This document shows positions 3,801-48,500 of a stretch of 64,000 bases of DNA, piece after piece. The notes under the pieces are model-generated. The model had not been told where the DNA came from, ran no database searches, and saw only the letters and a program-made list of their open reading frames with translations. The position numbers were made by a program, and so were the translations under genes. Origin of the DNA: Laetmonice hystrix. Taxonomy: Eukaryota. Within the stretch, counting starts at the first letter, position 1, and each line of letters opens with the position of its first letter. Location: assembly GCA_965235115.1 (NCBI GenBank), contig OZ249436.1:17114001-17178000 (forward strand). The letters run 5' to 3'.

Positions 3801-6800
3801 GGGACCTCTGATAAACTGTTCTCTGGCTGATGGAAACTTCGTAAGTTGGACACTCCTTCCTCTGTTCAAACCATCAACTTTTACTAGCATGGAGTGTCAT
3901 CTGTGTAGTAATTAAGTAAACTCGGCTGTATACGCCCATCTAGAAACTGATCTAGTTTTGTTTTTGAGAGTTACCTAGGCCTACTCTATTTCCCAAGGGA
4001 GTTCTGGATTCGGATGATAACCTTTAACCTGTGTGTTGCCCTGACCTTTGTCATGTGTGTTTGCGTGCTGTTCAGGGTGCACGTCTGCTGTGCTGGTTGA
4101 TGATGGCGGTGGCCACAGCCGAGCTTGTGTCAGCTCTGTCGTCTGCCGCCGTGTGTGCCTCCGTCTGGTGGCGAAAGGTTCTAAAACCGTCCAACGCGCA
4201 GGTCAGTACACAAACCCGCCAGGCAGTCCCTTAAAATTAAAGTGTCCAGTTGCAGTTTAGAAATGATAAGAAACGTAATACTTATCTATCCCTGCTTTCA
4301 TTTCAGTTCAGTTTATTTGCACTCGAGGGGCGTTCGGTCTATAGGCCTATAGGCATAGGCTCGAGACCCCCCCCCCCCCGACCAGTTAGCCTAGACCACC
4401 TCACGTTGTGTCCAAAGAGATCTTTTATTATTTTATCGAACGGGAGTGTATGTAGGTACATTATATGCAGGTGCAGGGACGAAATAGGCCTGGCGATGAC
4501 ACCCCTCTTAACACCAAACTCTAACCCTAACCTTTATATTGATAAGGGCGTGTCGTGTTTCAGATGGTTGCCGCTGCTCCCCAGCAGAGGGCGGGAGCGT
4601 CGGCAGACAAGTTCCAGGTTGTATACGTGCCGCCTGCCGAGTCTGATACGTCGTCATCGACACAGCCGAGCTCTCTCTACGTCCACCACCCACAGTCCCT
4701 GACTGTGAACACCGGTAAGTCACCACACACACACAGCCGAGCTCTCTCTACGTCCACCACCCACAGTCCCTGACTGTGAACACCGGTAAGTCACCACACA
4801 CACACAGCCGAGCTCTCTCTACGTCCACCACCCACAGTCCCTGACTGTGAACACCGGTAAGTCACCACACACACACAGCCGAGCTCTCTCTACGTCCACC
4901 ACGCACAGTCCCTGACTGTGAACACCGGTAAGTCACCACACACAGCCGGGCTCTCTCTACGTCCACCACCCGCAGTCCCTGACTGTGAACACCGGTAAGT
5001 CACCACACACACACACACACACACAGCCGAGCTCTCTCTACGTCCACCACCCACAGTCCCTGACTGTGAACACCGGTAAGTCACCACACACACAGCCGAG
5101 CTCTCTCTACGTCCACCACCCACAGTCCCTGACTGTGAACACCGGTAAGTCACCACACACACACAGCCGAGCTCTCTCTACGTCCACCACCCACAGTCCC
5201 TGACTGTGACCGGTAAGTCACCACACACACACAGCCAAGCTCTCTCTGCGTCCACCACCCACAGTCCCTGACTGTGACCGGTAAGTCACCACACACACAC
5301 AGCCGAGCTCTCTCTACGTCCACCACCCACAGTCCCTGACTGTGAACACCGGTAAGTCACCACACACACACACACAGCCGAGCTCTCTCTACGTCCACCA
5401 CCCACAGTCCCTGACTGTGACCGGTAAGTCACCACACACACACAGCCAAGCTCTCTCTGCGTCCACCACCCACAGTCCCTGACTGTGAACACCGGTAAGT
5501 CACCACACACACACAGCCGAGCTCTCTCTGCGTCCACCACCCACAGTCCCTGACTGTGAACACCGGTAAGTCACCACACACACAGCCGAGCTCTCTCTAC
5601 GTCCACCACCCACAGTCCCTGACTGTGAACACCGGTAAGTCACCACACACACACAGCCGAGCTCTCTCTACGTCCACCACCCACAGTCCCTGACTGTGAC
5701 CGGTAAGTCACCACACACACACAGCCAAGCTCTCTCTGCGTCCACCACCCACAGTCCCTGACTGTGACCGGTAAGTCACCACACACACACAGCCGAGCTC
5801 TCTCTACGTCCACCACCCACAGTCCCTGACTGTGAACACCGGTAAGTCACCACACACACACACACAGCCGAGCTCTCTCTACGTCCACCACCCACAGTCC
5901 CTGACTGTGACCGGTAAGTCACCACACACACACAGCCAAGCTCTCTCTGCGTCCACCACCCACAGTCCCTGACTGTGAACACCGGTAAGTCACCACACAC
6001 ACACAGCCGAGCTCTCTCTGCGTCCACCACCCACAGTCCCTGACTGTGAACACCGGTAAGTCACCACACACACAGCCGAGCTCTCTCTACGTCCACCACC
6101 CACAGTCCCTGACTGTGAACACCGGTAAGTCACCACACACACACAGCCGAGCTCTCTCTACGTCCACCACCCACAGTCCCTGACTGTGAGCACCGGTAAG
6201 TCACCACACACACACACAGCCGAGCTCTCTCTACGTCCACCACCCACAGTCCCTGACTGTGAACACCGGAAAGTCACCACACACACACAGCCGAGCTCTC
6301 TCTACGTCCACCACCAACAGTCCCTGACTGTGAACACCGGAAAGTCACCACACACACACACACACACACACCCCAGCTCTCTCTACGTCCACCGCCCACA
6401 GTCCCTGACTGTGAACACCGGTAAGTCACCACACACACACAGCCGAGCTCTCTCTACGTCCACCACCCGCAGTCCCTGACTGTGAACACCGGTAAGTCAC
6501 CACACACACACAGCCGAGCTCTCTCTACGTCCACCACCCACACCCACACCCACACCCACCTTCACCCCCCCCCCGGGGCCCCAACCTCGCCCCCATCACC
6601 CATCATCCCATCCTTATACTGCAACTCAACTCCCCTCAGGCTACCTTCATCCTGACCCAGAACTGTCCATCACATCCCGTGCCACTGACCAGTTTGACGT
6701 TAATTTTTCAGGTTTAGGGGCTGGAACTACCCCCACGTGTGTGGTGATTCCACCCACTCCCTCGCCACCCCCCGGCACTGACGACGAGAGCCCCATTACC

Positions 6801-45530: not shown

Positions 45531-48500
45531 TTACTGTAATTTTCCTGCAGACACAGGTTGGTTTTGAGAGGCCTCCAGCATGAAGCTTGCTGCGTGTAGT
45601 ACTGCAGGTAGTGATGTGTTTTCTGTGTGCCACCTGTAATACAAAATCATGAGACGATTTGGACAATCAAGAGTACAAGAACTTGAGAGGGAGGGAGACA
45701 TGCCTGACCCCCCTTAACCATGGTATCTCTTGCACGTTTTTCTTTTCTCCCTTATAATAAAATGTGAACCAAGCTTTCATTTCTAGAAGGAACCAATATG
45801 AATACGAAGATTTATATGAGGAAGACATGCATGTTTCACAACTAACCTGCCTGTATGGATCCCTGGCTGAGGGCTTAATACAACTGCTGCGATACTGAAA
45901 GAGAACCCAGAGAGGTGAGGCTAGATTAGGGGAACATGCTTATGAGTCTTGCAACCAAACTATAAATTTGAATTAGGTGCAAAGGAACCGCGGGAAATCC
46001 TCATTGTTAGTCTCTCATCCCTAACCCTTCAATGTGACTTTTCTTTAAGATGAGAACTATATTCACTGAAATTCTTAAAAAACAATTTTCTCAATGGTGG
46101 TGCTTACTTTGGCACCTTGAGAAGATTGATAAGTTCGCTGCCACGTGCAGACAATGCTTGCTTGGTGACATCATTCAGGAGGCTATGACTGGGAGGTTGG
46201 CTCAACTTGGTCAGACATAGCATCACTCGGGGAATCAGGTCCTGGGACCGTGAAGCCAACTGTCAAAATGTAACGACAGCTTGGTCAGACATAGCATCAC
46301 TTGGGGAATCAGGTCTTAGGACCGCCAGGCCAACTGTCACAATGTAATGACAGCTTGGTCAAACATAACATCACTCGGGGAATCGGGGGCCGGTTTTACT
46401 AAAGGTCGATAATAACGACGTCGATAATTTAACATAGAAGTGAATGGTTGCTAGGTCGTTATTTTCGACCTAGCAACCCATTCACTTCTATGTTAAATTA
46501 TTGATGTTATTTTCGACTCTTTAGTAAAACAGGGCCCTGGTCTTGGGACCGAGAAGCCAACTGTCAAAATGTAACGACAGCTTGGTATGACACCGCATCA
46601 GGACGGGAATCAGGAGGGTGTTTCAATAAGTGTGTTGGACCGTCTGAGTGGCGAGGACAGTCTGTCACTCGGTTGTAGGATCTGCAATTTTTGGTCCGTC
46701 GCCGGTCGGACTGTCCGACACGCTTATTGAAACACCCCCTGGTCTTGTGACCCTGACGGCAACTGTCCAAATAAAACGACGGCTTGGTCAGACACAGCAT
46801 CACTCTGGGAATCAGGTCCTGTCCTGAGATGCCAACCGTCAACTGTCAAAACGTTTGGTCAGACATAGATCCTGCAACTGCAGTTCTGACATCACTGATA
46901 TACACTCTCTGTATATCTATGTGAAGATGTGAAAATTAGAACTCAGCATGCCATCTGACAGTAGATAATTTACATACAAGATCAATAGTTGTATGTGATG
47001 AAGAGGAGAGTCCAGACTGAGAAAAGAGATCAAACCTTGGCAAGAGTTGACATGATACTGGTGAGGAGTCGGGCCGAGAACTTCTGCTCCATTGCACCGC
47101 GAGTCTCTGATGTCAGAGAATCCTCTGATGGCATTGCACCAGAATGAACCAATCCTGAGACTTCGTAGACCAGAGTCTCGATGGCCTCGTACATGGCTGA
47201 TATTTTATCTGGGGTGCAGCGACTGTCGTAACCCACACACAGATATTCCCCTACCAACCACATCTAAGAACAGAAAAAAATCAACCAAATCTCAACGAGT
47301 ACATGTACACAAAAAACATCAACTGAATCTCAATCAGTAAAACTATAATATTCTCCAATCAGCTGATGCTGTGACAGGCTGTAACATTACAATAATAATG
47401 TTTATCTTACTATGTGGACAAAGAAATCCTCGCCACTGCTGACATTTCTCAGGCTGATGAAGTCTAAGAGTTCACTGTATTGGTCCATCATCAGGTGAGG
47501 GTACAGTTGGAACAACGCCACCAATTGGTCAGCAAACACACTACAACCACAAAGGTCAGAGGTCAAGATACTGACAACCACGAGCCTCATCCCCTCAGCC
47601 TTGTATGGACCTCAGCTGAGGTGAGCCCTGTCCTTTCTGGACCTCAGCTGAGGTGAGCCCTGTACTGTCCGAACATCAGCTGAGGTGAGCCTTGTACTAT
47701 CCAGACCTCAGCTGAGGTGAGCCGGGTACAGTCCGGACCTCAACTGAGGTCAGCTGTACTGTCTGGACCTCAACTGAGGTGAGCAGTGTACAGTTGGGAC
47801 CTCAGCTGAGGTGAGCCCTGTACTGTCCGAACATCAGCTGAGGTGAGCCGTGTACAGTCCAAACCTCAGCTGAGGTGAGCCGGGTACAGTCCGGACCTCA
47901 ACTGAGGTGAGCCCTGTACTGTCTGGACCTCAACTGAGGTGAGCCCTGTACAGTCCGGACCTCAACTGAGGTGAGCCCTGTACTGTCCGGACCTCAGCTG
48001 AGGTGAGCAGTGTACAGTTGGGACCTCAGCTGAGGTGAGCCATGTACTGTCTGAACATCAGCTGAGGTGAGCCGTGTACAGTCCAAACCTCAGCTGAGGT
48101 GAGCCATGTACAGTCCGGACCTCAGCTGAGGTGAGCCATGTACTGTCTGAACATCAGCTGAGGTGAGCCGTGTACAGTCCGGAACTCAGCCACTGGAATG
48201 CCTGAGGAGTCTGGATTTCTGTTACAGAATATATATAACTTACGTTGTAATGCCCACAATGCTATCTGTTAGGATTCAACTAATATCTTCAATATTATGT
48301 TCAATGTTATTCTCTAACCTGCGCACATCAGCCTGGAAGACGGGAATATTGTAGAGGAGCCTCGAGCGCTCTAGGATGACAGGTACCAGGGTTGACGCTA
48401 ACTCTCCCTCACCCTCACACACCACCACATTAAAATATATCCTGTACGGCAAGAAACATCCACAATCAGAATATTGATGGGGTGGGGGTCTTCAAAATCA

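Follow-up and report, generated by a model that had tools for sequence, protein, structure and literature searches.

In amphioxus, tandem repeats that run across exon-intron boundaries have been described as "mirage" minisatellites in Adh3, troponin C, the globins BflGb6 and BflGb9, and PGBD5. The repeats carry AG/GT signals while splicing is undisturbed, their lengths vary between haplotypes, and their copies evolve in concert, with more divergence in the edge copies (PMC3087553, PMC3902484). The human F7 gene contains a 37-bp variable number tandem repeat (VNTR) in intron 7. Its first monomer crosses from the exon into the intron, and the identical pseudo-donors that come after it stay silent. 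F7 has 5-9 sites, and tests with 50 constructs showed that only the most upstream of the identical donors is used (PMC1557585, Borensztajn et al. 2006). Here we examine a 64-kb stretch of the Laetmonice hystrix contig OZ249436.1 (positions 17,114,001 to 17,178,000; hereafter the window), in which tandem arrays meet the splice junctions of a CD20/MS4A-like gene, a DHRS7B-like gene, GGA and AP5Z1. We consider these arrays to be ordinary, locally born minisatellites in an array-rich genome, which contact junctions because their host introns are tiny and of which the outermost copy is spliced (probability about 0.75).

Tandem arrays were called on the window with Tandem Repeats Finder (TRF), and those with a period of at least 10 were kept. 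The 55 rows reported by TRF merged into 28 arrays that together occupy 7,945 bp (12.4%) of the window. TRF and direct reading of the sequence showed that a splice junction is straddled or abutted by six of the 28 arrays, which consist of head-to-tail units of 71, 57, 74, 41, 51 and 26 bp in 2.4-26.5 copies (TRF). The initial annotation had named three arrays seeded on the exon-intron boundaries of their own genes and two more that run up to acceptors. The same two approaches recovered all five, and the latter two, in GGA and AP5Z1, indeed end 1 and 2 nt from their exons. However, the count was slightly too low, as a sixth array, at a GGA donor at position 38257, had been missed. The six arrays are as follows:

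4660..6542, plus strand: donor minisatellite of the CD20/MS4A-like gene, 71-bp unit, 26.5 copies with 92% matches by TRF, supported by copy alignment
18620..19281, plus strand: donor minisatellite of the DHRS7B-like gene, 57-bp unit, 11.8 copies by TRF, 12 by alignment, with GT intact in 10
38257..38322, plus strand: small donor array of 26 bp x2.4, beginning 2 nt inside a GGA exon on AA/GTAGGT (TRF and alignment)
39819..40311, plus strand: acceptor-side array, 41-bp unit with TGTTTGTACAG, stopping 1 nt before the GGA exon at 40313
46206..46870, minus strand: acceptor minisatellite of AP5Z1, 74-bp unit, 5 copies (TRF, own-genome and anchor search, alignment)
52503..53060, minus strand: acceptor-side array of 51-bp units, x11, with its end 2 nt short of the AP5Z1 exon starting at 52500

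Exon sequence is combined with a splice signal in the units of four arrays, with 41 nt of exon at 18620, 54 nt at 46206, 55 nt of a probable exon at 4660 and 2 nt only at 38257. The arrays at 39819 and 52503 hold the intron side with its AG only and no exon sequence in the unit. The TRF units have no motif in common. Each of the 71-, 57- and 74-bp units matched only its own array in a search of the 627-Mb genome, and for the 71-bp unit all 26 matches fell inside 4660-6542, suggesting that these three arrays were born locally. Minisatellites make up 12.2% of 180 kb sampled elsewhere (18 arbitrary 10-kb stretches from nine large contigs), which is close to the value for the window. General minisatellite proliferation is a lineage-wide feature.

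To obtain a local null, exon boundaries were mapped around 21 arrays and each host intron was stripped down to a single unit of its array. A seed as long as the observed unit was then placed uniformly over the stripped intron, with partial overlap with the flanking exons allowed. With a gap of at most 2 nt, six arrays touch a junction, compared to 5.12 expected of the 21 (P(>=6)=0.40). With gaps of at most 12 and 20 nt, the observed numbers are 8 and 9, compared to 6.30 and 7.16 expected. The six touching arrays sit in the smallest stripped introns (78-187 bp, for units of 26-74 bp), and stripping reduces the lengths of these introns from 1997 to 185, 683 to 78, 200 to 160, 639 to 187, 776 to 185 and 627 to 120 bp. 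Since the junction contacts occur at the rate of the local null, no junction-seeking process is needed. The initial annotation had proposed a lineage-wide process that amplifies junction sequence. Its lineage-wide extent is borne out by the genome sample, but its aim at junctions is not, and the overlap between arrays and junctions in the window is no higher than random seeding within the host introns would give.

Seven arrays outside the mapped introns (8368, 14099, 25524, 27718, 40855, 41376 and 62498) were left out of the local test, and none of them touches a known junction. The array at 14099 is located in a DCTN4 intron, and its flanks are without coding sequence within 170 bp. In DCTN4, two exons were mapped by own-genome Pfam search, and Dynactin_p62 was found in 4 of 107 minus-strand open reading frames (ORFs). 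Because DCTN4 was so poorly mapped, a full exon count was dropped and the local null was preferred.

The choice among the copies was checked on read contigs from four runs, X1-X4, which were compared over 38000-53200. X1-X3 are DNA-like, and X4 contains spliced contigs. The four runs share a single sample and a single study, which may be that of the assembly itself, and are not independent of the assembly. The AP5Z1 exons were mapped by own-genome Pfam searches; a word-index exon search gave no matches. The two exons that flank the 74-bp array are:

46108..46259, minus strand: AP5Z1 exon, matching Pfam TPR_AP5Z1_C 261-315, with X4 contig joints 45894 to 46108 and 46259 to 47036
47036..47263, minus strand: upstream AP5Z1 exon, matching TPR_AP5Z1_C 200-260, its donor joined to 46259 in X4

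The 74-bp unit corresponds to the first 54 nt of exon 46108-46259 together with the preceding 20 nt of the intron. TRF found 2.4 clean copies, and the own-genome and anchor searches raised the total to 5, with minus-strand starts at 46863, 46784, 46586, 46357 and 46285. The array is broken by two insertions, one palindromic at 46385-46540 and the other near 46610-46740. An X4 spliced contig of 1,774 nt (record 25), whose pieces include 46108-46259, 47036-47263 and 47411-47540, joins 47036 to 46259, which is the last acceptor copy, and skips 776 nt. The X4 joints have CT..AC ends, corresponding to GT..AG on the minus strand, and are absent from X1-X3; the contig fits the assigned coordinates of two array-bearing introns exactly. 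The TPR_AP5Z1_C profile, which runs from 200-260 in one exon to 261-315 in the next, is contiguous only with this last acceptor. The decoy copy at 46271-46354 matches profile positions 254-281, which is the same part as in the real exon (255-317), and three decoy acceptors lead to stops at codons 12-92. At this site, the spliced contig uses the genuine last acceptor. For the exon at 52500, the reading frame is continuous (G/AC) across the intron with the 51-bp array.

Two further arrays in AP5Z1 are placed near junctions without touching them:

51316..51364, minus strand: pyrimidine-rich array of 22 bp x2.2, 7 nt upstream of an AP5Z1 acceptor
53570..53814, minus strand: array of 24 bp x10, beginning 11 nt past an AP5Z1 donor

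An AP5Z1 contig from X4 (51150-51513) extends past exon 51152-51308 into the upstream intron, the array at 51316-51364 included, and could represent intron retention or pre-mRNA. In X1 and X3, the DNA contigs lack 301 bp of the 74-bp array. In the same two runs, contigs that skip from 41421 to 41472 represent an allele that is one 50-bp unit shorter in the array at 41376-41514, and both differences look like allelic copy-number variants. The palindromic insertion at 46385-46540 resembles a miniature inverted-repeat transposable element, has a depth of about 2e4-6e4 with many loose ends, and is absent from the 301-bp-shorter allele.

The exons on either side of the 57-bp array belong to a short-chain dehydrogenase/reductase (SDR):

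18568..18660, plus strand: DHRS7B-like SDR exon, matching Pfam adh_short 114-145 on residues 3-34 of 37
19344..19497, plus strand: next DHRS7B-like exon, with a split Tyr codon followed by AASKHA... (YxxxK motif), matching adh_short from 150

The last 41 nt of exon 18568-18660 open the array, so that the end of the SDR exon serves as the first copy, and the array contains 10 GT[AG][AG]GT sites. The adh_short profile covers 114-145, followed by three residues and the split Tyr codon, and continues from 150 onward. It is contiguous only with the first donor, and a functional DHRS7B-like enzyme would therefore need that donor. Accordingly, we infer use of the first donor from functional need rather than from observed splicing. 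Splicing from decoy donors 2-4 would extend the protein, with no stop, by 19, 38 or 57 in-frame residues just ahead of the catalytic Tyr, and donors 5-10 lead to stops. The GT is kept in 9 of the 11 decoys, where about 79% are expected to survive at a per-site divergence of 11%. The Pfam support at this locus is for adh_short, that is, for an SDR, and the name DHRS7B is taken over from the initial annotation. The gene adjoins a TMEM11-like gene tail to tail at 17390-22495, where Pfam Mito_morph_reg (TMEM11) was confirmed. DHRS7B and TMEM11 are also tail-to-tail neighbors on human 17p11.2, and the arrangement may be an old microsynteny kept in an invertebrate.

The largest of the six arrays, with the 71-bp unit, lies between two probable exons:

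4564..4714, plus strand: probable penultimate coding exon of the CD20/MS4A-like gene, with a P-rich tail (splice consensus and frame continuity)
6712..6826, plus strand: probable last coding exon of the same gene, with the acceptor ttaatttttcag at 6711 and a phase-1 continuation to TAG

The putative exon 4564-4714 has an acceptor, tgtttcag/ATG, in frame with a TM4-like exon ending at 4201, and a donor, CG/GTAAGT, at 4715. Its last 55 nt are the start of the first repeat unit, and its frame runs on into 6712-6826 until the stop. A protein search with this exon found no homologues. The array contains 27 copies with the genuine one counted, 24 GTAAGT sites and a (CA)n tract. In the alignment, GGTAAGT is retained in 24 of the 26 full copies, GT has changed to GA in two adjacent copies, and a block of seven units is present twice. 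All 23 decoy donors lead to one shared early stop. The array ends in its exon-derived CCACCCACA, exactly where an intronic (CACCCA)4 run starts, suggesting that the first duplication may have arisen by misalignment of short direct repeats. The label MS4A-like in the initial annotation is tentative, as its sole link is a HMMER match (E=8e-5) between exon 1 and P0124, identified by Pfam as CD20. Searches with single exons against Pfam returned 0 families for six pieces, comparisons with solved structures gave chance matches only, and comparisons with the Atlas gave no score of at least 0.9. An intron of the gene also contains a perfect (CTGC)71.5 tetranucleotide run of 286 bp at 2719-3004, with 100% matches.

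In GGA, the phase AA/G at the small donor array at 38257 agrees with the acceptor at 38458/38459. The 41-bp array has degenerate copies from 39773 and 14 copies or half-copies in all by alignment, and tblastn shows continuity across it (P0011 amino acids 543-595 and 594-629). The Pfam VHS domain was confirmed in the window. The best tblastn totals for GGA were obtained with chiton, annelid, oysters and mussels, with lower totals for vertebrate GGA3. The gene labels of the initial annotation were centered on vertebrates, but the GGA similarity points to an invertebrate host (lophotrochozoan-like). A GGA intron contains, at 38897-39431, two inverted copies with identical 74-aa ORFs and a k-mer depth of 4e4-1.6e5; DNA contigs of X1-X3 skip 531 bp here. 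The element looks like a very abundant foldback-type mobile element that is polymorphic for presence and absence. Downstream of the GGA stop codon, the 50-bp array at 41376-41514 is G-rich, with runs of GGGG and GGGC. The X4 depth is 30-106 over 42563-45097, where there is no gene model, and this region may be a long 3' untranslated region or an unannotated transcript.

Several points weigh against our reading, some of which would fit a mutational process of the lineage that favors amplification of splice junctions, by slippage at pyrimidine tracts or donor motifs or by transcription- or splicing-coupled instability. With 45-80 exons, a uniform null over the whole window expects 1.9-3.7 contacts, and P(>=6) ranges between 0.014 and 0.17 (for 54-70 exons, 2.35-3.14 expected and P 0.03-0.10). 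This expectation is lower than that of a null limited to transcribed DNA, under which 3.6-5.0 contacts are expected (P 0.16-0.38), because the arrays are denser in genes. After stripping, the density is 2.6 times higher in transcribed DNA (22 arrays in 33.4 kb, compared to 6 in 23.7 kb; binomial P=0.022), and this excess is unexplained. The arrays at 39819-40311 and 52503-53060 are flush with the acceptor AG, where 0.36 such arrays are expected (P=0.052), and they constitute a small unexplained residue. A further three arrays come to within 7, 11 and 19 nt of a junction. However, the contacts conform to both the local and the genic null, 15 of the 21 intronic arrays touch no junction, and the units lack a common motif. 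Furthermore, the window was picked for this very pattern, and the nominal P values are therefore optimistic. We consider such a process quite unlikely. Other weaknesses concern the map and the splice sites themselves. The exon map is partial, with about 54 exons documented and DCTN4 mostly unmapped, three of the intron boundaries used and no more were fixed by the spliced contig, and the 2-nt tolerance was set after the data had been seen. Run X4 is taken as transcript-derived on the basis of its spliced contigs and not from its record, use of the first donor at the two donor arrays is inferred, and the exon status of 4564-4714 is unproven, resting on splice consensus and frame continuity.

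That selection keeps the arrays for a function of their decoys, such as regulated alternative splicing, in-frame repeat insertions or splicing buffers, seems very improbable. DHRS7B donors 2-4 could supply in-frame insertions, and most of the decoy signals are intact, but this degree of intactness is the neutral expectation at the measured divergence. No selection on the decoy splice signals is visible, and GT/AG is lost at the neutral rate. Any insertion in DHRS7B would disrupt the distance between Ser and Tyr in the SDR active site, and the stops reached from the decoy donors of the 71-bp array and from the AP5Z1 decoy acceptors suggest that decoy use would mostly be harmful, as most decoys would give a premature stop. 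The sole transcript contig uses the genuine site, and the copy number differs between alleles. The initial annotation had suggested that the splicing system tolerates or uses many identical decoys. Tolerance is supported by the AP5Z1 joint and the Pfam continuity, while nothing in the stops or the neutral decay points to use. It is hardly credible that misassembly produced the arrays or their copy numbers. Tandem arrays are prone to assembly errors, the four runs may be the assembly's own, and k-mer contigs are unable to count copies. However, X1-X3 depth is present in 30 of 30 bins, every array included, contigs pass from unique flanks into the arrays (e.g., 45342-46285 and 46698-47668), the alternative contigs have the appearance of alleles, and for two arrays the ends of the surrounding intron are confirmed by the spliced contig.

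If the arrays are ordinary minisatellites in small introns, they may have formed in the following way. Slippage or unequal exchange, with short direct repeats as the probable primer, would have duplicated a segment of 26-74 bp in tandem. Where the intron measures 78-187 bp, a segment of this size would straddle or abut a junction 30-90% of the time. Unequal exchange would then have enlarged and homogenized the array, as the repeated seven-unit block and the allelic variants may reflect, inflating the intron 1.2- to 11-fold and leaving behind dozens of near-identical decoy donors or acceptors. Among the copies, the spliceosome would take the one that adjoins the remainder of the exon, hence the first of the donors or the last of the acceptors, as observed in AP5Z1 and probable for the others, and the array would be removed as intron, nearly neutral in effect.

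A broader view is that minisatellites arise in connection with transcription units, and perhaps with acceptor pyrimidine tracts, and that their birth is the main route of intron growth and turns the genome into a library of decoys. The higher density in genes and the two AG-flush arrays hint at this, which we nevertheless regard as unlikely. If true, the genome would contain tens of thousands of identical decoy splice sites, and an outermost-site rule (first donor, last acceptor) would be readable genome-wide. Under our preferred reading, a high birth rate of minisatellites acts on compact genes. The introns are swollen to the extent given above and about sixty spare splice sites are present within 64 kb, and the reading frames of the conserved SDR, AP5Z1 and GGA genes are still kept. 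The geometry of short introns would provide a simple and testable reason for recurrent mirages in compact invertebrate genomes without a special mechanism, and the array loci represent natural tests of spliceosome choice among identical sites.

Repeats of this kind have been published before, as has the finding that they do not harm splicing, and the mechanism is ordinary. Intron and exon gain by tandem duplication in human tandem arrays was reportedly described by Zhuo et al. in PNAS in 2007. In the Rogers model, introns are gained by tandem duplication of sequence that contains splice sites (PMC3087553). The arrays in the window resemble this model in that their copies carry splice signals that look functional and are raw material from which new exons or introns could form, but they lie in existing introns, and no new intron or exon was seen. 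A literature search for mirage-type repeats outside amphioxus found no account for molluscs or annelids. For earthworm metallothionein genes, intronic minisatellites and unexpressed exon duplications have been reported, and the available part of that report mentions no junction repeats (PMC12783039).

The 71-bp and 57-bp arrays share with the F7 VNTR a junction-spanning first monomer followed by identical pseudo-donors. They differ in having 24 and 10 donor sites, and use of the first donor is suggested here by Pfam continuity, whereas in F7 it was tested with constructs. The mirage of amphioxus Adh3, which reportedly goes back to a paper by Canestro in 2002, belongs, like the F7 repeat, to the known systems closest to the present arrays. 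Both the amphioxus repeats and the present arrays have head-to-tail units that span the exon-intron boundary with splice signals, and both show length differences between haplotypes (here 301 bp in AP5Z1). A genuine copy at the array edge with normal splicing was observed here for AP5Z1, in the X4 joint, and adh_short continuity suggests the same for DHRS7B. Two of the six arrays are not mirages in the strict sense, as their units contain no more than the intron side of an acceptor. Compared to the amphioxus cases, the present host is of another phylum, several cases occur within 64 kb of a genome with a minisatellite content of 12%, and their contact with junctions is accounted for quantitatively by intron size.

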